64,000 nucleotides of DNA, from assembly GCF_965641715.1 (NCBI RefSeq), contig NZ_OZ282453.1; one strand, 5' to 3'. Source of the DNA: Escherichia coli. Its GTDB lineage: Bacteria; Pseudomonadota; Gammaproteobacteria; Enterobacterales; Enterobacteriaceae. Position numbers and translations under genes: made by a program. Shown in pieces: positions 2-11,394 of this stretch (within the stretch, counting starts at the first letter, position 1; each line of letters begins with the position of its first letter). The notes beneath the pieces are model-generated. The model was not told the origin of the DNA, searched no databases, and saw nothing but the letters and a program-made list of their open reading frames with translations.

Positions 2-115
2 TTTTGCCGAGAAGATGGCACGACTGACGGCGCAGCTGAAAGATCAGCTGGAAGAGAGCGCGAAGCTGGAAGCACAGATTAAGGCGAATCTGGGGGGGCT
101 GGGTTATGAGTTCTA
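2..115 (+). CDS. hsdM: Type I R-M methyltransferase subunit HsdM, C-terminal fragment (gene starts upstream of window)
   Basis: Open frame from window edge ending ...KLEAQIKANLGGLGYEF*, a typical HsdM C-terminus; stop overlaps the hsdS start (ATGAGTTCTAA). Confidence 0.7.
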
Positions 116-1461
116 AGTTTCGGAAAGTAAAACTATGTGAAATCCTCTCATTTAAGACAGGTAAACTCGACTCGAATGCAGCAGTAGATAATGGTTGTTA
201 TCCTTTTTTTACTTGCTCGCCAGTTACACTTTCGATTAATACGCATGCTTTTGACACTGAAGCAGTATTATTAGCTGGTAATAACGCAAATGGGGTATTT
301 TCAGTAAAATACCACAATGGTAAGTTTAATGCTTACCAAAGAACATATGTTATTACTCCTCTGGATAATTCAGCGGTCAATGTGAAATGGCTTTATTTTA
401 GAATAAAATATGTTACGTCAGAATTACAATCAATGTCAGTTGGCACTGCAACAAAATTCTTAACAAAAAAGATTTTGGATTCATTTGAGATTGAACTGCC
501 AACTTTTGAAGAGCAAACATATCAAGCTCAGATTTTATGGGCGTTACAGGATAAATTAGCTAATAATGAAGCTATAAACCAAACTCTCGAACAAATGGCG
601 CAAGCCCTGTTCAAAAGCTGGTTTGTCGATTTTGAACCGGTAAAAGCCAAAATGGCAGCGTTGGAAGCGGGCGGTTCGCAGGAAGACGCGACACGTGCCG
701 CCATGACGGCAATTTCCGGGAAAGATGCTGATGCGTTGGTGGTTTTTGCGCGTGAACATCCTGAGCAATATGCCGAGTTAAAAGCCACGGCAGAACTGTT
801 TCCGTCTGCGGTGCAGGAAAGTGAGTTGGGGGCGATTCCTAAAGGATGGGGGGTGGCGTCAATTAGTGAGATGGGGAAGATTACTTGTGGCAAAACTCCG
901 TCAAAAAAAGAACCAAAGTATTACGGTGGTGATGTTCCATTCATAAAGATACCAGATATGCATGGGCAACTCTTTGTGCTTAAAACTAATGAATATTTAA
1001 GCGAAGTCGGTTCAAAGTCGCAACTAAAAAAACTTGTGCCCGCTAACTCTATCTGTGTTAGTTGTATAGCTACTATTGGTGTTGTTTCTATCACCAATGA
1101 ACCATCTCATACCAATCAGCAAATAAATTCGGTTACACCTTATAAGAGTTCATTACTTTATTATCTTTATTTTTGTATATTGGGATTGAAAGATCATCTT
1201 CACGTTTTAGGTAGCGCAGGTAGTGCAACCTTAAATGTCAATACGTCTACTTTCTCAGGAATTAAAATCGCTCAGCCTGATGCTAAAGTATTGGAGTTAT
1301 TTCATGCCAAATGTACACAATTATTTAATGAGATTAAATCGCTCTGTGTACAAACTGAATCACTTGCACAACTACGAGACACCCTCCTCCCCAAACTCCT
1401 CTCCGGAGAAATTACGTTACCGGATGCCGAGGAAATAGCCAAGGAAGCTGACTATGTTTAA
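106..1461 (+). CDS. hsdS: Type I R-M specificity subunit HsdS
   Basis: 451 aa; two AT-rich variable target-recognition regions flank a conserved central block (LEQMAQALFKSWFVDFEP) and C-terminal block (LRDTLLPKLLSGEI); start coupled to the hsdM stop. Confidence 0.9.
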   Translation: MSSKFRKVKLCEILSFKTGKLDSNAAVDNGCYPFFTCSPVTLSINTHAFDTEAVLLAGNNANGVFSVKYHNGKFNAYQRTYVITPLDNSAVNVKWLYFRIKYVTSELQSMSVGTATKFLTKKILDSFEIELPTFEEQTYQAQILWALQDKLANNEAINQTLEQMAQALFKSWFVDFEPVKAKMAALEAGGSQEDATRAAMTAISGKDADALVVFAREHPEQYAELKATAELFPSAVQESELGAIPKGWGVASISEMGKITCGKTPSKKEPKYYGGDVPFIKIPDMHGQLFVLKTNEYLSEVGSKSQLKKLVPANSICVSCIATIGVVSITNEPSHTNQQINSVTPYKSSLLYYLYFCILGLKDHLHVLGSAGSATLNVNTSTFSGIKIAQPDAKVLELFHAKCTQLFNEIKSLCVQTESLAQLRDTLLPKLLSGEITLPDAEEIAKEADYV

Positions 1462-2647
1462 AGTCGATCAGCCCAGTAATAGCCTGCAACCGCTTCAGGA
1501 AACCACCTTCACTAACGCGGGTTTCACCGAGCGCTACCACTTACAGGAGTGGCTGGCAAAGCATCCGCAAGCATTGACTCGCAACAGCGATGACGAACTA
1601 CTTATCATCCAGAAAGAGTTTGCCGGGTTTGACGACACCAAAGAGCGGTTAGATCTGCTGGCGATCGACAAAGACGGCAATCTGGTGATCATCGAGAACA
1701 AGCTCGATGATTCCGGGCGTGATGTCGTATGGCAGGCGCTGAAGTACGCGGGCTACTGCGCGAATCTACGCAAAGAACATATTGTTGAGATCTTCCAGCG
1801 TTACCTCGATCAGAACGATCCAGAAGAAACACGCCCAGCCTCTGATGTGCTCGCAGAATTCCTCGAACATGAAAGCCTGGATGAAGTGCAAATTAACCAA
1901 AGCCGTTCCCAGCGTGTGATGATGGTTGCGGCAAATTTCCGCAAGGAAGTTACCAATACTGCGCTCTGGCTGATGCAGTTCAACATCCGTGTCCAATGCT
2001 TTAAGGTCACGCCTTACCGTTATGGAAATGATGTATTCATCGACATCCGCCAGGTTATTCCCACACCGGAAGCCGAATCCTACATGATCGGTATGGCGCA
2101 GAAGGAAGCAGAAGAACAATCAACCAGCGGTGAACTGAAACAGAGCCAACGCCTGCGCAAGGCGTTCTGGACGCAGATGCTGGAGAAATTTCATGCCAGC
2201 GACTGTACGCTGTATAACAACATCAGCCCGTCTATGGATCACTGGTTATGTGCAGGCTCTGGCATAAGTGGTATGCCTTATAGCCTAATATTCAGCAAGA
2301 AGGAAATCCGCGTAGAATTATGGATTTCGCGAGCATCGGCAGACATCAACACCATGGCGTTGAACTGGCTTGAACAACACCGCACATCTGTCGAAGAGGT
2401 ATTCGGCAACCCACTGGAGTGGCTATCGCTACCTGGTAAAAAAGCCTGCCGTATTCAATACCGCCAAAAAATAGATGGCTTCCAGCAGGAAAATTGGCCG
2501 CAAATGATCGACTGGCTGGTGGAACATATGACCCGTTTTGAGAATGCGCTTTCGCCGTATCTGCCACAGCTTAACCAGTTGATCAAGCAGACCTTTAACG
2601 GGCATGATGAAGCTGAAAATACAACAGAAGAAGCCGAACACGTATAA
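1454..2647 (+). CDS. Hypothetical protein embedded between hsdS and hsdR; N-terminal PD-(D/E)XK-like nuclease motif
   Basis: 397 aa; ATG overlaps the hsdS stop by 8 nt with an AAGGAAG RBS; motif ERLDLLAIDKDGNLVIIENK resembles the D...ExK core of Hjc/NucS/RecB-type nucleases; no P-loop. Confidence 0.6.
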   Translation: MFKVDQPSNSLQPLQETTFTNAGFTERYHLQEWLAKHPQALTRNSDDELLIIQKEFAGFDDTKERLDLLAIDKDGNLVIIENKLDDSGRDVVWQALKYAGYCANLRKEHIVEIFQRYLDQNDPEETRPASDVLAEFLEHESLDEVQINQSRSQRVMMVAANFRKEVTNTALWLMQFNIRVQCFKVTPYRYGNDVFIDIRQVIPTPEAESYMIGMAQKEAEEQSTSGELKQSQRLRKAFWTQMLEKFHASDCTLYNNISPSMDHWLCAGSGISGMPYSLIFSKKEIRVELWISRASADINTMALNWLEQHRTSVEEVFGNPLEWLSLPGKKACRIQYRQKIDGFQQENWPQMIDWLVEHMTRFENALSPYLPQLNQLIKQTFNGHDEAENTTEEAEHV

Positions 2648-2662
2648 CACAGGACGTTACCG

Positions 2663-5600
2663 ATGCTTACCGAAGACGACTTAGAACAGCTTTGCCAGGG
2701 CTGGTTTGCCGAACAAGGTTGGGAAATCCATCATGGGCCAGATATTGCCCCCGATGGCTGTAACCCGCAACGCGCCAGCTATCATGATGTATTCCTGACG
2801 CCCGTGTTGAACGCCTGCCTGCAAAAAATCAACCCGCACCTGCCCACTGACGTCTTCGAACAGGTCATCTCCCGTATTACTCGCGCTGAAAGCCCGGATC
2901 TGATTGCCAGTAACAAAGCCTTTCATCACTGGTTGCTGGAAGGGGTTCCGGTACAGTACCGTCGCGACGAAGAACTTATCCACGACCACGCCCTGCTGGT
3001 GGATTTTAGCCAGCCGCAAAACAACCGTTTTATGGTGGTCAATCAAATGACTATCAGCGGAACGAAACAGCCTCGCCGCCCGGATATCATCTGCTTTATT
3101 AACGGAATACCACTGGCGGTTGTGGAACTAAAAAGCCCTGTCGATGACAAGGTAGATATCTGGGATGCGTACCACCAGTTACAGACCTATAAAGATGAAA
3201 TACGCGACCTGTTTATCAGCAATGAAGCGTTGATTGTCAGTGATGGTTATCTGGCGCGTGTGGGGTCCCTGACCGCCACGGAAGAACGTTTTATGCCGTG
3301 GAAGACCATCAGCAATGAAAATGACAAGCCGTTGCTGGAATGGCAACTGGAAACTATGGTACGGGGTTTCTTCAACCGGGAATTGCTGCTCGACTATATC
3401 CGCTATTTCGTTCTGTTTGAAAATAACGATGAAAGGCTAATTAAGAAAATAGCTGGTTATCACCAGTTCCACGCGGTGCGTGAGGCCGTGCAGGCGACGA
3501 TCGTTGCTTCGACCGGTAAGCAACTGGTACTGCACAGTAATATTCAGCCAGGCAGTAAGAAAGCAGGCGTGGTCTGGCATACGCAGGGTTCCGGTAAAAG
3601 CATCTCCATGTGTTGCTATGTCGGCAAACTGTTGCAACAGCCGGAGATGGGCAACCCGACGATTGTTGTTGTGACCGATCGTAACGATCTGGACGGCCAG
3701 CTTTATGGTACATTCTGCCAGGCACAGGAGCTGCTCAAGCAAATGCCGGTACAGGCAGATGATCGTGAAACATTGCGTGATCTGCTTGCAACTCGCGATG
3801 CTGGCGGCATTATCTTTACCACCGTGCAGAAATTCTCCCCGGAAGAAGGGGAAAACGCCCATCCGATTCTCAATGGACGCAGCAATATCGTTGTTATTTC
3901 CGATGAAGCGCACCGCAGCCAGTACGGCATGAAAGCCAACCTGGATCGTAAAACCGGCGTCTATAAATACGGTTACGCTAAACATATGCGCGACGCGCTA
4001 CCTAACGCCTCGTTTCTGGGATTTACCGGTACACCGGTTTCGGCAGAGGATCGCGATACTCGCGCTGTATTTGGCGATTACGTCTCAATTTATGATATTC
4101 AGGACGCTGTGGACGATGGCGCAACGGTGCCTATTCACTATGAATCCCGGCTGGCAAAACTCGATCTCAATCATGAAGAGCTGGCGGCGCTGTCCGATCA
4201 GGTTGAAGAACTGATTGAGGACGATGAGCTGGATCAGAGAGAAAAAACCAAAGGTGAATGGAGCCGTCTGGAGAAACTAGTTGGTGCTAAACCACGTCTT
4301 CAGCAGATCGCTGCCGATCTGATTTCTCACTTTGAGAAGCGCAATACCGTAATGGACGGCAAGGCGATGATTGTCGCCATGAGCCGTGAAATCTGCGTCC
4401 ATCTTTACGATGAAATTATTGCGTTGCGTCCGGAGTGGCACGATGACGATCCTGAAAAAGGGCAAATCAAAATCGTGATGACCGGTACAGCATCTGATAA
4501 GGCAATGCTGCAACCGCATATCTACAACAAACGGACTAAAAAACGGCTGGAATCCCGCTTCAAGAATGTGAACGACCCGCTGAAGCTGGTGATAGTGCGT
4601 GATATGTGGCTGACCGGCTTTGATGCCCCATGCTGTCACACTATGTATATCGACAAACCGATGCGCGGCCATAACCTGATGCAGGCTATTGCCCGTGTCA
4701 ACCGGGTATTCAAAGACAAGCCCGGCGGGCTGGTGGTGGATTATATTGGTATCGCCAATGAGCTGAAACTGGCGCTGAAAACTTATACCGATGCAAACGG
4801 TAAAGGTGATGCGACCGTCAACGCTGAAGAAGCACTGGCAATCATGCTGGAAAAGCTGGACATCATCCACGGTATGTTTGCCAAAACGGCAACGTCAGCG
4901 GGTTTTGATTACACCGGCTTTGAAGCTCATGCGCAGAAGTTGCTAGTACCAGTTGCAAACTATGTGCTCGGCCTTGAAGACGGTAAGAAGCGTTTTCTCG
5001 ATAACGTACTGGCAATTACTAAAGCCTGGTCGCTTTGCTGTACGCTGGATGCGGCGCAGCCTTATAAACTAGAGATTGCTTTCTTGTCGGCGGTAAAAGC
5101 TGCTATCAGCAAATTCACCAGTGTGGACAAAAAAATAAGCCAGGCTGAGAAGAACTCCGCGCTGAAACAGATTCTGGATAATGCCGTAATTGCTAACGGC
5201 GTGGATGATATTTTCACGCTGGCTGGTCTGGATAAACCGAATATTGGCTTGCTTTCAGATGAATTCTTGCAGGAAGTCCGCGATATGCCATATCGAAATC
5301 TGGCGGTAGAGCTGCTGGAAAAACTGATTAATGACGGTATCCAGTCCCGTACAAAAAACAATGTAGTGCAGGAGAGGAAATATTCAGAACGTCTTCAGGC
5401 TGTATTGATTAAATACAACAACCGGGCTATTGAGACGGCGCAGGTGATTGAAGAGCTGATCCAGATGGCGAAGGATTTTCAGTCTGCAATGGCGCGTGAT
5501 GATGCGCTTGGCCTGAATCCTGACGAGATCGCTTTCTACGATGCACTGGCAGAAAACGAAAGCGCCGTCCGGGAGTTAGGAGATGAGGTACTTAAGAAAC

Positions 5601-5797
5601 TGGCGATAGAAGTGACGCTGAAGCTGCGCCAATCCACTACCGTTGACTGGCAGGTACGGGAAAGCGTTCGTGCAAGGCTGCGTATCCTGGTTCGCCAGAC
5701 TCTGCGTCGGTATAAGTATCCGCCAGATAAAACGCCGGGTGCGGTGGAGTTAATTTTGAAACAAGCGGAAGTTATTTCGAATCATTGGACGATGTGA
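2663..5797 (+). CDS. hsdR: Type I R-M restriction subunit HsdR
   Basis: 1044 aa; N-terminal nuclease motif ([18 protein letters not shown]), helicase motif I ([11 protein letters not shown]), DEAH box ([12 protein letters not shown]), motif III (GFTGTP). Confidence 0.92.
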
Positions 5798-5861: not shown

Positions 5862-7604
5862 GTGAGTAAATATAGCGAAATACAACGTCAATTAGATGAA
5901 GTAAGCCCAATACCGAAAGGTATTCCTAAAGTATACCTTTTAGGGGACACTGGAGCAGGAAAGACGACTTTTATTCGAAAAATATTAGGAACTGAAAATA
6001 CCAAATTCCCTACCACCAGACAAAGTAGAACAACCGTTGCACCAACTGAGTATGTAATATGTAAATCATCCAATTATGAATTAACGATTCTGTTAAAATC
6101 TTTTGATGAGATTAATGGATATGTCAGAGAAATTCTAAAAGAAGCATTAGAGAAATCATTGAAAGGTGAAGATGTTAAAAGAAGCTTACGTCAAACAAAT
6201 GATCAGCGGTTTCGTTTATACTATCTTCTTGACGTCAGTGATATTGCAAATTTTGCTGAAGAAGTTATCTCTCTTACACCTCTTCTTTCCGAAAAAATTG
6301 ACGAATTAAAAGAAATTTTTACCGATGATATAACGGATCAAGATGAGTATATTAGTTTTGCTATTGATGAATTAAATGATAAAGTTGAATGTATCCAAAA
6401 TAAGATTATGGACTCCATTCAGAGTAATGTAATGTCCATTTGTAATGGAAGTATGTTAAGTAATGAATCACAGATATTTAAATACATTTCAACCGAAAAA
6501 GAAGACTTTATCAAAAAATGTAAAAAAATATTATCAAGTGATAAAGAGTCTATATCACCTGTTGTCGAGTATGCGAGACTGAGTGGAGAACTCAAATCAG
6601 AATGGGTGAATAGTTGTGCAGAAATAGTTATTATTGATGGTGAAGGTATTGGGCATAATACAAAAGAAACGGCACAACTAGACTCCAGGCATTATGATTT
6701 CTTTTATGATGTTAACTCAATCTTGCTTATCGAAGAGTCAAAAAAACCTTTTATTGCTGGGGGCAAAAATGCATTAAAAAGTATTTTTCAGCGTGGATAT
6801 GGTGATAAATTAAAACTAATCTTCACTAAGCTGGATGAAGTTATACCTTATGATTCAGACGAATCAACAGATGAAGATAGAATTGATTATGTAAAAGATG
6901 GTCTCAATAATGTTCTGGATGCATTAAAAAAAGAAGAGGTGAAGTGTAACATTGATATCGAGGATATTTATTTCATCGGAGATCTTGATAAACCTGAGCA
7001 TAACGCAAGACTTGAATTGGCTTTTAATTCCATATATGAAAACACAGTTTCCATGATAAATAATGATGAGGTTTTCATTGAGCCTAAGTATGACTTTGAG
7101 TTATTGGCCTTGCATATAAATTCTACTTCTAATGATTTTAAAACATACTATAGAAAATTATTAGATAGAGAACATTGGAAAACAATAGAAGCATTTAATC
7201 GACGGATGTATTCAAATATAGATGGGTTTAGGATGTTTATGCCTATTACCGATTTTGAGGAAACTGTGAGTAAATATATTGGTGGTTTTTTGACCTCGCC
7301 AATGGATTGGAAATATGAAGCGGTTGATAACTTGAAGCAAAAAAGTATTAATAAAATCAAGAGGGAATTCAACAAGCTTATTCTTAGCTTTATTCGCAAT
7401 AAGTTAATTATGGAACCATATGAAAAATGGAAAGAATCCTATTTCTTAGCTGGCACTGGTTCAACGATTAGTAGAAAACGTGAGATAACTACTATTTTTA
7501 GTGACACAATTATTGATGCCTCCCAAACTGAACGCTTTAAGGTGTTCAAGGATCAAATTAAAGAGATTGTTGTCAAGTCAATAGAGAACTGTAAGTCAAT
7601 ATAA
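5862..7604 (+). CDS. AT-rich P-loop NTPase of unknown function (GTPase-like or ABC-like)
   Basis: 580 aa, GTG start with AAAGG RBS; Walker A/G1 GDTGAGKTT (aa 28-36); far downstream VIIDGEG (DxxG or Walker B-like) and FTKLD ([N/T]KxD-like); LSGE ~15 aa before VIIDGEG could be an ABC signature; GC roughly one third by eye. Confidence 0.6.
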   Translation: MSKYSEIQRQLDEVSPIPKGIPKVYLLGDTGAGKTTFIRKILGTENTKFPTTRQSRTTVAPTEYVICKSSNYELTILLKSFDEINGYVREILKEALEKSLKGEDVKRSLRQTNDQRFRLYYLLDVSDIANFAEEVISLTPLLSEKIDELKEIFTDDITDQDEYISFAIDELNDKVECIQNKIMDSIQSNVMSICNGSMLSNESQIFKYISTEKEDFIKKCKKILSSDKESISPVVEYARLSGELKSEWVNSCAEIVIIDGEGIGHNTKETAQLDSRHYDFFYDVNSILLIEESKKPFIAGGKNALKSIFQRGYGDKLKLIFTKLDEVIPYDSDESTDEDRIDYVKDGLNNVLDALKKEEVKCNIDIEDIYFIGDLDKPEHNARLELAFNSIYENTVSMINNDEVFIEPKYDFELLALHINSTSNDFKTYYRKLLDREHWKTIEAFNRRMYSNIDGFRMFMPITDFEETVSKYIGGFLTSPMDWKYEAVDNLKQKSINKIKREFNKLILSFIRNKLIMEPYEKWKESYFLAGTGSTISRKREITTIFSDTIIDASQTERFKVFKDQIKEIVVKSIENCKSI

Positions 7605-7615
7605 TAAGATAGAAC

Positions 7616-7638
7616 AGTCCCGGATAATATTCGGGACT
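7616..7638 (+). other. Hairpin after NTPase gene (AGTCCCG-N9-CGGGACT)
   Basis: Perfect 7-bp stem 12 nt after the stop codon; no U-tract, so may be an RNA-stability or processing element rather than a terminator. Confidence 0.35.
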
Positions 7639-7706
7639 CATACACTTACAGATGGAGCTATGAATTTAGCAGTAAGAGTATTTGTGATTATTTAAGGAAA
7701 GTAACA

Positions 7707-8672
7707 ATGCCTTTAGATTTAAGTAACACTTTAGTTATTGGCATTAGCGCGACTGCGCTTTTTGACATGAGCGAATCCGACCATATGTTTCGGGAAACCT
7801 TTGCGACTGATCCTGATAGCGCCATTGAAAAATACCGCGCTTATATGCTAGAACACGAAAACCAACCTTTACAGCCCGGAACAGGCTACCCCTTAGTCAA
7901 AGCGTTGCTGGGTCTGAACCAGTACCGTCAACCGGATGATAAATCGCCGTTGGTTGAGGTTGTTGTGATGTCACGTAACAGCCCTGATACAGGTATCCGC
8001 GTTCTCAATACCATTCGCCATGACAAACTCGATATTACACGTTCAGCTTTTACCGCAGGCGAAACCGTTGCCGATTACCTTGATGCCTTTGATGTGGATC
8101 TGTTTTTAACGACCAACGTTGAAGATGCGCAAAAGGTGATTGATTCCCGATTCTGCGCCGCTGCAATCCTGAAAGATCCACCTTCTGACGCATCTGATAT
8201 CCCAGAAGGGCAAGTGCGCATTGCTTTTGATGGCGACGCGGTACTTTTTTCCGATCAAAGCGAACTGGTTTATAAGACCCAAGGAATGGCTGCCTTCCAT
8301 GCTCAGGAAGACGCGCAGCAGGATATCCCTATGGAAGAGGGGCCTTATGCCACTTTGCTAAAAAAAATAGCCAAGCTTCAGGAACGATTGCCGACCCGCG
8401 TTGAGTATTCTCCTGTTCGTATTGCGCTGGTGACAGCCCGAAATAGCCCTTCGGAAATGCGCGTTATTAAAACGCTAAGAAGCTGGGGGGTATATGTCGA
8501 TGAAGCTTTTTTTCTTGGCGGTGTAGAGAAAACAAAAGTTCTGAAGGCGTTTAGGCCACACATTTTCTTTGACGATCAGGATGTGCATTTGATCGCGGCT
8601 GCAAAGGTAGTACCTTCTGGTAAAGTACCTTATGCCAGTAACTCCGAACTTGCAGAACGTGAAGCATCGTGA
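7707..8672 (+). CDS. HAD-superfamily phosphatase, cytosolic 5'-nucleotidase-like
   Basis: 321 aa; RBS AAGGAAAG; C-terminal half carries HAD-like motifs I (IAFDGDAVLF), II (IALVTARN), a conserved Lys and IV (HIFFDDQDVH); N-terminal ~170 aa is a separate domain. Assignment is from motifs, not a search. Confidence 0.55.
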   Translation: MPLDLSNTLVIGISATALFDMSESDHMFRETFATDPDSAIEKYRAYMLEHENQPLQPGTGYPLVKALLGLNQYRQPDDKSPLVEVVVMSRNSPDTGIRVLNTIRHDKLDITRSAFTAGETVADYLDAFDVDLFLTTNVEDAQKVIDSRFCAAAILKDPPSDASDIPEGQVRIAFDGDAVLFSDQSELVYKTQGMAAFHAQEDAQQDIPMEEGPYATLLKKIAKLQERLPTRVEYSPVRIALVTARNSPSEMRVIKTLRSWGVYVDEAFFLGGVEKTKVLKAFRPHIFFDDQDVHLIAAAKVVPSGKVPYASNSELAEREAS

Positions 8673-8680
8673 TTATCGCT

Positions 8681-8715
8681 GACAAACCATTTAGTCATTA
8701 AGACTGAATGGTTTG
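8681..8715. other. Hairpin between convergent genes (ACAAACCATT-N15-AATGGTTTGT)
   Basis: Perfect 10-bp inverted repeat in the 77-bp gap between the nucleotidase-like gene and the HNH gene; possible bidirectional terminator. Confidence 0.4.
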
Positions 8716-8749
8716 TATGCCACTCGCAAAATATCTGCCCTACCTCAAA

Positions 8750-9625
8750 TCAATGCTCTCCTCTGAACACCTCTTTTCTGTGCCATTCCACAAACTGCTC
8801 GCCCGGATAATTTTCTTTAACCGGTGGCAACGCAATCGCCTTTCCCGCAAAATCCCAGAACAGTCGCTGTACCACTCCACCACCATTTACCGCGCCGGAA
8901 ACCACCACACGCATATTTTCATCCAAGCCAATCGAACCGCGATCAAACGCTTTATGATGGATTGCGCACAATGCCAGGCCATTAGGTACTTCACAAGGGC
9001 CATGGTGCTGCTTCCATCTGATATGAGCAGCTTCCAGAGCAATTGGCGCATTGTCGTGGCGCATGTTGAAGCCGCAGATCGCACACTGATAATTGTAAGC
9101 ACGTAGCACCATCTGGCGGAACTTCGGATCGCGTTGACGGAGAGAGGTGCGAATATCAAAACCCATCTCGTCAGCTATCTCTTCCTGAATACTGGCCGGG
9201 AAATGCGCCTCCAGGAGCTGCTGCGCCAGCGTATCAATTAACCTGTGATTTTTTGCCACCAACGCAAAATTATCGGCATCAAATCCACCAGCGACATTAT
9301 ATTCAATGAGTTCACGTCGGGGCGGCTGGCGGCTACCACTGGTTGAGCACAGTTGTGCGTTTTGTAGTTCCCAGAAGCCATCGCCCTTCAGACGCCAGAA
9401 CGGCATGTCCGGGCGCTGGTCACGGCGCTGCGGTCCATAACGTTCCAGAAGATCCAACAGGGGCTCGTAGATTTCAGAACCATAGTTAAACAGGCGACCA
9501 TGACCCTGCCGATAGTGTGAGAGGACGTGCAGCAGCAATAATGGCTTATGTGGCGCACGTTGTTCGCCTTTGCGCCAGATGGTGATATTTGATATCGCTT
9601 GCTTTAGGGCTTTGTCAGAGGTCAT
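8750..9625 (-). CDS. HNH endonuclease with N-terminal putative DNA-recognition domain (candidate Type IV restriction enzyme)
   Basis: C-terminal HNH motif YQCAICGF...AAHIRWKQHHGPCEVPNGLALCAIHHKAFDRG (CxxC, H, N, CxxHH); ~190-aa N-terminal domain unidentified. Start set at ATG (MTSDKAL); the track ORF extends to a TTG at 9670. Confidence 0.6.
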   Translation of the reverse strand: MTSDKALKQAISNITIWRKGEQRAPHKPLLLLHVLSHYRQGHGRLFNYGSEIYEPLLDLLERYGPQRRDQRPDMPFWRLKGDGFWELQNAQLCSTSGSRQPPRRELIEYNVAGGFDADNFALVAKNHRLIDTLAQQLLEAHFPASIQEEIADEMGFDIRTSLRQRDPKFRQMVLRAYNYQCAICGFNMRHDNAPIALEAAHIRWKQHHGPCEVPNGLALCAIHHKAFDRGSIGLDENMRVVVSGAVNGGGVVQRLFWDFAGKAIALPPVKENYPGEQFVEWHRKEVFRGEH

Positions 9626-9769
9626 TGCGTTGAAGAATCCATGAGCACATATTTGCGATGATGCTCGCAACTATATGTACATTCAAGGCATTATTGCAGA
9701 CATCCTTTTTGCCTGACTGCTCTGTACCTGGCAGATGAAATTCTGATAACAACGGTAAAAAATACAGCG

Positions 9770-9840: not shown

Positions 9841-11109
9841 TCACTCGCCATTACCCCGATTGATCTTCGCATAGTCAAACGGCGTAATCGCTCTCTCCCG
9901 ATTGGCATCCAGAAAATCAGCCCACCACTGCAACATCAGCTTGCGCTCATCCAGGTGTTCCGCTTTATGGATATACGCCGCCCTCACCGAGCTGCGTTCC
10001 ATATGGCTCATCTGCCTTTCCACCGCATCCTTCGACCATAACCCTGACTCAATCAATGAGCTACAGGCCATTGTGCGGAAGCCGTGGCCGCAAACTTCAA
10101 CCTTAGTGTCATAACCCATCACCCGTAGCGCACTGTTTACCGTGTTCTCGCTCATGGGCTTACGCGGATCGTGATCGCCAATAAAAATCAGCTCATGTTC
10201 GCCACAGAACTGTTTTATCTGCTTCAGGATCGCCAGCGCCTGCTTTGAAAGCGGCACCAGATGCGGTGTACGCATCTTTGAACCTCGCTGAGAATGTTTC
10301 ACACCGGGAATCGGTTCTCGCTCAGGCGGGATGGTCCACATTGACGTTTCAAAATCGATTTCTGACCAGCGAGCAAAACGTAGCTCACTGGATCGAATAA
10401 AGATAAGCAGAGTGAGTTCTGTCGCCCAGCGGGTTAGCGGCCTGCCTGTATAGCTATCTATTTTCTCAAGTAACTCAGGGATACGCTTTAATTCCAGCGC
10501 CGGGCGATGCTGTCGATTGCCAGAGGCGACTGCTCCAGCCATCTCCTGCGCTGGGTTGTAATCAATCAGCCCACTTTGCACTGCATAACGCATAATGGCC
10601 GTGGTACGCTGTTGGAGACGAGAAGCCACCTCAAGACGTCCAGACAGTTCCACCGCTTTAATGGGTGCCAGTAAGTCACGAGTGCCCAATTCGGCAATAT
10701 TGCGAGAACCAATTGCCGGGAAGATATTGTCCTCCAGGCTCTTTTTTACACGATTAGCATGATCTTCTGACCATTTTTGGTTGGTTACGAGCCACTCTCT
10801 GGCAACCTTCTCGAAAGTAATAATCTCTTTCGCCTGCTCTTCTTTCACAGCACGCTTATGCTCACGAGGATCGATACCAGCAGCTACCAGCTTTCTGGCC
10901 TCTTCCCTTTTCTTCCTGGCATCTGCCAGCGAAACATCCGGGTAAACGCCGAACGCCATCAAATGTTGTTTACCGCCAAAACGGAAACGAAATCGCCAAT
11001 ACTTTGAACCGCCAGGTTTTACAAGTAAGGACATGCCATCGCCGTCAACAAGTGAATACTCTTTCTCCTCAGGTTTCGCAGAGCGAACTTTAGTATCCGT
11101 TAGGGCCAT
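9841..11109 (-). CDS. intB: P4-type tyrosine integrase (IntB-like) adjacent to leuX
   Basis: Begins MALTDTKVRSAKP..., ends ...AITPFDYAKINRGNGE; C-terminal catalytic region with R...HxxR...Y pattern; start trimmed from the track ORF (448 aa) to the conserved MALTD start (422 aa). Confidence 0.85.
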   Translation of the reverse strand: MALTDTKVRSAKPEEKEYSLVDGDGMSLLVKPGGSKYWRFRFRFGGKQHLMAFGVYPDVSLADARKKREEARKLVAAGIDPREHKRAVKEEQAKEIITFEKVAREWLVTNQKWSEDHANRVKKSLEDNIFPAIGSRNIAELGTRDLLAPIKAVELSGRLEVASRLQQRTTAIMRYAVQSGLIDYNPAQEMAGAVASGNRQHRPALELKRIPELLEKIDSYTGRPLTRWATELTLLIFIRSSELRFARWSEIDFETSMWTIPPEREPIPGVKHSQRGSKMRTPHLVPLSKQALAILKQIKQFCGEHELIFIGDHDPRKPMSENTVNSALRVMGYDTKVEVCGHGFRTMACSSLIESGLWSKDAVERQMSHMERSSVRAAYIHKAEHLDERKLMLQWWADFLDANRERAITPFDYAKINRGNGE

Positions 11110-11280
11110 AATGGTCTTCCTTCCATTGGTATCTCGTGAGTATACAAGCAATATCGAATCGGCAAATATACTCATTAGTATACTCACAAGCCTGTTGATG
11201 TGGGTTGGTTCAGGTTGACTTCAGTTGAGGAGAAAAGCTGGAAAAGCCTTGCGTGGCGCGGATTTCAGGCATAAAAAAAG

Positions 11281-11309: not shown

Positions 11310-11394
11310 TGGTGCCGAAGGCCGGACTCGAACCGGCACGTATTTCTACGGTTGATTTTGAATCAACTGCGTCTACCGATTTCGCCACTTCGGC
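11310..11394 (-). tRNA. leuX: tRNA-Leu (anticodon CAA)
   Basis: Reverse complement reads GCCGAAGTGGCGAAATCGGTAGACGCAGTTGATTCAAAATCAACCGTAGAAATACGTGCCGGTTCGAGTCCGGCCTTCGGCACCA: cloverleaf with CAA anticodon and CCA end. Confidence 0.95.

Follow-up and report, generated by a model that had tools for sequence, protein, structure and literature searches.

Within a window of 64,000 nt of Escherichia coli DNA (contig NZ_OZ282453.1 of RefSeq assembly GCF_965641715.1), the gene at positions 7707..8672 (+) encodes a 5'-nucleotidase of the cN-I type (Pfam PF06189; PADLOC PDC-S08) within a restriction island inserted at a tRNA gene. Sequence comparison strongly supports that the gene product is a two-lobed phosphomonoesterase, predicted to depend on Mg2+, of the cN-I (PF06189) 5'-nucleotidase family, and comparison of loci strongly supports that restriction/defence islands which integrate at tRNA genes carry the gene as their conserved terminal "backbone" gene. 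As to function, the explanation that we favour overall, with a confidence that stays somewhat short of even, is that the monophosphate pool is the target of the island copy, which would thereby limit salvage by phages, including a step in support of defence. Judged from its sequence, the identity of the protein as a phosphatase is solid. It is the location of the gene, and that only, which points to an anti-phage role, and a nucleotide-pool role in defence is plausible.

The open reading frame (ORF) is complete, running from an ATG start codon through 321 codons to a stop codon. A Shine-Dalgarno sequence, AAGGAA (7694..7699, +), lies 7 nt 5' of the ATG, and no convincing promoter belonging to the nucleotidase gene was found. 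The translation matches the Pfam model PF06189 ("5-nucleotidase") with an E-value of 4.6e-119 over protein residues 1-312 and model positions 1-300 of 302; since this match is nearly full-length, both the gene and its family assignment are far beyond chance. RefSeq annotates the protein as "5'-nucleotidase", and NCBIfam holds no model that matches it. Residues 165-312 form the C-terminal catalytic HAD lobe (8199..8642, +). Motif I, DGDAV (residues 175-179; 8229..8243, +), has the form DxDx(T/V) as D175-G-D177-A-V179, with D175 as predicted nucleophile and D177 as predicted general acid/base. Motif II is Thr243 (8433..8435, +) within IALVTARN (239-246), motif III is Lys275 (8529..8531, +), and motif IV is Asp289-Asp290 (8571..8576, +) within FFDDQD (287-292). 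Conservation was scored in two alignments, one holding 112 diverse homologs (34-84% identical) and the other 126 representatives; over 113-126 diverse homologs, 35-61% identical to the query, the catalytic residues are conserved to 99% (D175), 100% (D177), 98% (T243), 97% (K275) and 94% (D289/D290).

The AlphaFold2 model of the nucleotidase, on which the structural comparison rests, is confident (pLDDT 95.3, pTM 0.92) and has a predicted Rossmannoid alpha/beta core fold with a beta-alpha topology repeated twice. Its best structural neighbours are HAD phosphatases. Foldseek against AFDB50 aligned the model with the vertebrate Cytosolic 5'-nucleotidase 1A (cN-IA) over 338 columns (TMq 0.90, 36% identity). 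Foldseek against the PDB gave weak single-lobe matches only, and sequence searches of the PDB, made with the single protein and with a family profile, did not find a relative of the whole protein. The first-pass annotation, made from the letters of the window, had proposed a HAD-like nucleotidase with the four motifs in the right order. The ORF and all motif residues were confirmed, and the full-length PF06189 match, the conserved motifs, the confident AlphaFold model and the cN-IA match (TM 0.90) bear the proposal out. The Pfam search that it had suggested returned the 5'-nucleotidase family, and the two points on which it had staked the idea, a profile match and conservation of the motif aspartates in homologs, both turned out in its favour. 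Its numbering of the catalytic aspartates as D176 and D178 was off by one, the correct residues being D175 and D177.

The same annotation had left the N-terminal domain of about 170 aa unassigned and had suggested that it could bind substrate or regulate activity, a reasonable idea. PF06189 covers this region too, which turns out to be a degenerate second copy of the HAD lobe: the N- and C-terminal halves of the nucleotidase align with each other in BLASTP (E 9e-7), and hhalign of the half-family profiles gave 99.1% probability (E 1.3e-18, 143 columns). The resulting N-terminal pseudo-HAD lobe (residues 1-160; 7707..8186, +) is homologous to the C-lobe and has the same fold. It lacks the DxD motif, which is replaced by ISAT here and by VSSRA in the family consensus, as well as the Lys of motif III and the DD of motif IV. 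Residues G58, S89, N91, R98, G118 and L132-L134 are kept, and G58, S89 and R98 are equivalent in position to G212, T243 and R252 of the C-lobe. These data strongly support that the N-lobe duplicates the C-terminal HAD lobe and is itself catalytically dead. As the match to cN-IA is full-length over its 338 columns, both lobes are common to the bacterial protein and the animal enzyme. The nucleotidase is fully accounted for by two HAD lobes, of which the N-terminal one, by analogy, is probably a nucleotide-binding module with a structural or allosteric part to play; its role may be the allosteric one.

The resemblance to cN-IA/IB (NT5C1A) thus comprises PF06189 over the whole length, the two-lobed fold of the AlphaFold models and the same HAD motifs. 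The bacterial protein differs in that it lacks an N-terminal extension (321 aa versus about 369 aa), and in contrast to cN-IA, a tissue-specific metabolic enzyme, its gene is carried on a mobile restriction island.

In E. coli, the nucleotidase was present in 72 of 5426 complete genomes. All eight contexts that were inspected consisted of type I restriction-modification (R-M) genes, variable cargo, the nucleotidase, an optional phosphorothioate (PT)-dependent endonuclease, an integrase and a tRNA gene, the tRNA sites being leuX, selC and a tRNA-Phe. What fills the cargo slot depends on the strain: DSR1, SIR2, an AAA ATPase with an HNH protein, a carbon-nitrogen hydrolase/nitrilase-like protein, a DEAD-box helicase, insertion sequences (IS) and unknown genes were found there. 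Homology between islands starts at the ribosome binding site (RBS) and ATG of the nucleotidase in three of six sequences, and about 95 nt upstream in the other three. Because the cargo varies and inter-island homology starts at this gene, the nucleotidase forms the right-hand border of a hotspot for defence cargo, and this border is conserved. The possibility that the gene makes up an obligate two-gene system together with the PT-endonuclease was considered and rejected. The two genes are convergent with a strong hairpin between them; moreover, the endonuclease accompanies the nucleotidase in leuX-type islands and is absent from selC-type islands, and 254 E. coli genomes were hit when the query covered both genes, versus 72 for the nucleotidase alone.

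Beyond E. coli, about 8000 word-sharing candidates were scored and yielded 404 clusters (50% identity) with E < 1e-30. Homologs that are 71-91% identical occur in more than ten genera, and most of them follow an R-M operon on the same strand. In Shewanella, type I R-M genes are followed by variable cargo (McrBC, Zorya-like, AAA_15), the nucleotidase and then a dynamin-like operon. Azotobacter and Stutzerimonas have type I R-M genes, the nucleotidase and then a DUF262/GmrSD-type enzyme, while in Desulfomicrobium a type III-like R-M system is separated by a 27-nt gap from the nucleotidase, which is followed by GmrSD. Pseudoalteromonas, Photobacterium and Alteromonas carry the gene 21-36 nt behind hsdS on the same strand, and in Pseudidiomarina it stands between a type II R-M system upstream and PD-T4-2 downstream. 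A Bacillota metagenome-assembled genome with a 50% identical nucleotidase has the layout hsdM-hsdS-hsdR-cargo-nucleotidase of the E. coli islands. In this genome and in Shewanella, Stutzerimonas, Azotobacter and Pseudidiomarina, the gene comes behind R-M genes with cargo. Type IV enzymes (GmrSD, DUF262, McrBC, PT-HNH) are often located 3' of the nucleotidase.

Between genera sharing the type I module, the nucleotidases are 77-86% identical, compared to 40-80% for HsdR and 53-79% for HsdM. At the level of sequence, this indicates a purifying selection on the nucleotidase that is unusually strong for a gene of a defence island. The slower evolution of the nucleotidase compared to its Hsd neighbours is consistent with an enzyme whose target is an invariant small molecule and not a phage protein. 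A phage- or plasmid-borne anti-defence gene was rejected as explanation, because homologs are found in just 3 of 50,697 phage records and 46 of 72,556 plasmid records. The only phage-labelled carriers are DQ115828.1 (cyanophage AS-1), MT839593.1 and MT839165.1, whose PF06189 homologs are 37-48% identical.

PF06189 is the family of NT5C1A, the human cytosolic 5'-nucleotidase IA (PMC5098729, Table 1). For cN-IA, which ADP activates, the Km for AMP hydrolysis is in the millimolar range and that for pyrimidine deoxynucleoside monophosphates (dNMPs) is low (PMC10383617). As the vertebrate homolog has such substrates, a phosphatase activity on nucleoside monophosphates (NMPs) and dNMPs is suggested for the bacterial protein, which probably converts nucleoside 5'-monophosphates, likely including dNMPs, to nucleosides and phosphate. 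ADP activation and a preference for AMP and pyrimidine dNMPs are assumed by analogy. From its context only, the island copy would most likely assist immunity by restriction through the nucleotide pool: it could remove the (d)NMPs set free from degraded DNA and so leave phages unable to re-use them. It could also deplete the adenylate pool (AMP) when ATP-burning restriction motors raise ADP and AMP. Such an action on the monophosphate pool agrees with the range of substrates that cN-IA accepts, with how slowly the protein evolves and with the missing sensor domain. A role of the nucleotidase as a phage-sensing toxin is unlikely.

HAD chemistry is used in immunity, as PUA-Cal-HAD and CARF-HAD have proven defence roles. 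The nucleotidase resembles PUA-Cal-HAD, CARF-HAD (Chp) and DS-9B, all of them HAD phosphatases with a known or proposed action on the nucleotide pool in the course of phage infection. These three are C1-cap HAD proteins coupled to sensors (PUA plus a calcineurin-like partner; CARF) and turn to (d)NTPs or other substrates after a signal, whereas the nucleotidase belongs to another HAD subfamily with tandem capless lobes, lacks any sensor or partner that could be recognised and has monophosphates as its probable substrates. More generally, nucleotide-depleting effectors (dCTP deaminase, dGTPase, PUA-Cal-HAD, CARF-HAD) have an infection-triggered switch, which is not evident in the nucleotidase. 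The first-pass annotation had raised the protein as a possible effector of this kind, depletion of nucleotides being a known strategy against phage. Of this proposal the defence context holds, with type I R-M, PDC-S11, a PT-dependent HNH endonuclease, an integrase and tRNA-Leu surrounding the gene; the effector role amounts to guilt by association, and the PDC-S08 match is unspecific.

Several observations weigh against a part of the island copy in defence. Carrying the properties of cN-IA over to the bacterial protein is an extrapolation to an enzyme of only 36% identity. Neither the domains of the nucleotidase nor its neighbours revealed a sensor, antitoxin, regulator or infection-triggered switch, and a cell would pay heavily for an NMP phosphatase that is not regulated. 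Seed searches of limited sensitivity detected R-M genes within 10 kb of only a minority of 80 species-representative loci. Many homologs of 44-68% identity are situated among housekeeping genes, such as alaS with aspartate kinase (ask), an RsmB-like methyltransferase, dihydroxyacetone kinase (dhaK), mtgA and a TRAP transporter. In Lachnospiraceae, the gene is part of the conserved synteny holA...DUF1653-nucleotidase-sfsA/mutY. Given the many homologs in housekeeping contexts, the basic role of the family is one in ordinary metabolism. Among the E. coli copies, some carry frameshifts or are cut short by IS/transposase insertions (one of them at locus L099, 9079-9965), and since such copies exist, the gene is dispensable in some strains. 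The literature yielded neither biochemical nor phage-challenge data on any bacterial PF06189 protein; a search on PDC-S08, on PF06189, on nucleotidase with anti-phage and on 5-nucleotidase with restriction-modification found no functional study.

Nor does the PADLOC assignment settle the matter. The nucleotidase matches the PDC-S08 model PDLC04900 over its full length (E 5.3e-134, 444 bits) and adjoins type I R-M genes, the type of context from which PDCs were defined. PDCs are candidates named through "guilt by embedding" (Payne et al., bioRxiv 10.1101/2024.01.29.577857); PDC-S08 is mentioned neither in the main text nor in the searched supplements of that work. Unlike an embedded PDC, the nucleotidase is located downstream of the R-M genes in the window. 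When the specificity of PDLC04900 was tested on homologs at loci L018, L020, L027, L030, L042 and L060, housekeeping copies scored 378-437 bits versus 444 bits for the island copy. Because housekeeping homologs score alike, the PDC-S08 match is not independent evidence of defence. The model is effectively a generic PF06189 model, and PDC-S08 calls likely include many non-defence genes. The only correlation found in the literature concerns P. aeruginosa, in which PDC-S08 was split 50/50 between phage-resistant and phage-susceptible strains (PMC10855318).

Together, most of these points favour an ordinary metabolic or house-cleaning cN-I nucleotidase that hitch-hikes on the islands or serves as a homology arm for cargo exchange and gives no protection against phages. 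We consider this possible, with a probability that is substantial and lower than that of the explanation we favour. It would account for the loci, the majority of the 80, at which R-M genes were not seen within 10 kb, for those that are clearly housekeeping or have genus-conserved synteny, for the very strong purifying selection, for the pseudogenised copies and for the unspecific and evenly split PDC-S08 calls. The start of inter-island homology at the RBS/ATG implies that the gene marks a recombination junction, in line with a homology arm. However, across several phyla and more than ten genera the gene recurs with R-M systems of types I, II and III-like, on their strand and at close spacing, which would be unlikely for a mere passenger. 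Furthermore, E. coli already possesses several housekeeping nucleotidases, and the gene is confined to 72 of the 5426 E. coli genomes, with mobile islands in each of the eight contexts inspected.

A further reading, which we regard as unlikely, is that the nucleotidase constitutes a functional extra component of restriction systems that couples DNA restriction to destruction of the (d)NMP/AMP pool, be it the pool that results from restriction or the one around it. The module would then comprise a sigma54-type AAA+ protein, HsdR, HsdM, HsdS and the 5'-nucleotidase, and variants thereof; the dead N-lobe would sense ADP or another nucleotide, and the outcome would be an immunity layer of "salvage denial" or energy collapse whose ancestry is shared with animal cN-IA.

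The gene could also encode a restriction-coupled back-up (abortive-infection) effector with a logic like that of PrrC, inactive normally and activated once restriction fails or gets out of control. The trigger might be the surge of ADP/AMP caused by type I or III motors, perceived through the dead N-lobe and leading to a collapse of adenylates or dNMPs. PrrC is an example of an embedded system (bioRxiv 10.1101/2024.01.29.577857), and like PrrC the nucleotidase is an accessory non-R-M gene that repeatedly accompanies type I R-M operons on the same strand. The operon-like position directly after hsdS or res, the ADP activation of cN-IA (PMC10383617), the conservation of the N-lobe in spite of its catalytic inactivity and the existence of nucleotide-depleting HAD effectors in defence are consistent with this logic. 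PrrC, however, is an anticodon nuclease with a demonstrated activation mechanism that occurs almost only inside type I R-M systems, whereas the nucleotidase is also associated with type II and type III-like systems and very often stands apart from any R-M genes. The association with unrelated R-M types includes the ATP-independent type II, near-identical enzymes have no R-M genes nearby, and in E. coli variable cargo lies between the nucleotidase and the R-M genes. Toxicity or an allosteric ligand is not evidenced. We therefore judge a back-up effector improbable.

Still less probable is a cleaner of modified dNMPs (m6-dAMP, hm-dCMP or phosphorothioate-linked products) or of danger signals, which would block re-incorporation of the modified nucleotides, and hence self-attack by the adjacent type IV enzymes, or alternatively would reset the danger signals. 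In several lineages type IV enzymes (PT-HNH, GmrSD/DUF262, McrBC) indeed lie immediately 3' of the gene, the m6-dAMP that arises when methylated DNA is degraded has been documented as an immune signal, and the Lachnospiraceae copy adjoins a fusion of sfsA with the repair gene mutY. YjjG, as it is cited in PMC12715507, is a precedent for a house-cleaning HAD nucleotidase. On the other hand, selC-type E. coli islands and many other loci have no type IV neighbour. The excess of genomes matching the query for nucleotidase plus PT-endonuclease (254) over those with the nucleotidase (72), in which the extra matches are not broken down, likewise argues against a cleaner, and a preference for such substrates is not evidenced.

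A polynucleotide 3'-phosphatase or another enzyme that processes the DNA or RNA ends left by the island nucleases is highly improbable: the nucleotidase has no kinase, ligase or nucleic-acid-binding domain, its matches to the class B/C acid phosphatase AphA, which is periplasmic, and to the 3'-phosphatase domain of T4 Pnkp, which is fused to a kinase and has polynucleotide ends as its substrates, are single-lobe ones of only 8-13% identity over a generic HAD core of 114-118 residues, and its full-length match of 36% identity is to cN-IA, a biochemically established mononucleotidase.

The enzyme family is known, and it has already been listed as a defence candidate (PDC-S08). Beyond the databases, our analysis adds that the N-terminal half is a second, dead copy of the HAD lobe which animal cN-IA has as well, that R-M operons and islands of different phyla have the nucleotidase as a strongly conserved element at their end, and that the PADLOC model fails to separate island copies from housekeeping copies. 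If the role in immunity holds true, a monophosphate-level step of "salvage denial" would be added to the nucleotide-depletion defences, bacterial restriction islands would be linked to the animal enzyme cN-IA, and a first model of function and regulation would be available for bacterial PF06189 proteins. If it does not, PADLOC PDC-S08 calls would largely denote ordinary nucleotidases, and the gene would serve as a landmark for the right edge of a cargo slot that harbours genuine defence genes (DSR1, SIR2, AAA+HNH) as well as uncharacterised ones like that of the 580-aa protein of this window.

In the window, the island comprises the type I R-M genes hsdS (106..1461, +) and hsdR (2663..5797, +), with hsdM located before the window start. 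Embedded between hsdS and hsdR is the 397-aa PDC-S11/DUF4268 gene (1454..2647, +; PADLOC PDC-S11, E 1e-177), whose relatives in related loci carry the DUF4268 annotation. The closest database relative of the nucleotidase, which is 91% identical, has the same gene arrangement with hsdM upstream. The variable cargo consists of an ORF for a 580-aa, low-GC protein with a weak P-loop signature (5862..7604, +). Its GC content is about 32% in a region of about 50%, and it was found in 2 of 5426 E. coli genomes. It had no match in NCBIfam or PADLOC, and Pfam gave only weak N-terminal P-loop matches. Because it occupies the slot that elsewhere holds DSR1, SIR2 or AAA+HNH, it is a candidate new defence gene.

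A hairpin with a 10-bp stem (7616..7638, +; z -3.1) lies just 3' of the 580-aa gene and within the leader of about 95 nt common to three of the six E. coli-type islands compared. The hairpin downstream of the nucleotidase has a 15-bp stem (8682..8716, assigned to neither strand; z -6.4 on the plus and -4.0 on the minus strand), is situated between the convergent nucleotidase and HNH endonuclease genes and is likely a bidirectional terminator, without a clear U-tract after the stem. It is followed by the gene for the type IV restriction endonuclease, a phosphorothioated-DNA-binding HNH enzyme (8750..9670, -; NF045808, E 5e-133; SBD_ScoMcrA plus HNH_2), and by the island integrase, a P4-type tyrosine recombinase (9841..11187, -). 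The attachment site of the island is leuX, the gene for tRNA-Leu(CAA) (11310..11394, -), behind which the core genes ahr, idnK and idnD follow; this core flank, including the tRNA, is 98.5% identical to E. coli chromosomes.

All-against-all clustering of the neighbours at 90 loci did not reveal any partner gene conserved throughout. In six genera or more, a Sigma54_activat AAA+ protein of about 490-500 aa precedes the HsdR-HsdM-HsdS-nucleotidase module, which suggests a conserved five-gene unit headed by this protein. Its gene was located at L008 2135-3607, L094 118-1611, L096 1-439 and L004 1-410, with a seed match at L011/L059. A copy of the nucleotidase in Desulfuromonas, 76% identical, has transposases as sole neighbours. 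Small conserved ORFs are present directly 5' of the nucleotidase, one of 55 aa in Shewanella (L002-L005, 9661-9828) and one of 38 aa in Azotobacter (L008, 9852-9968); the 55-aa ORF is kept in four Shewanella strains despite differing cargo.

In the Lachnospiraceae synteny (L060, 9401-12717; also L045, L050, L058, L062, L063, L074, L077 and L080), a DUF1653 protein is encoded upstream of the nucleotidase, and a 586-aa SfsA-MutY fusion starts 14 nt 3' of it on the same strand, hinting at a link to functions in DNA repair or nucleotide sanitation. The PT-endonuclease that adjoins the nucleotidase in leuX-type islands is a pseudogene in several E. coli strains.

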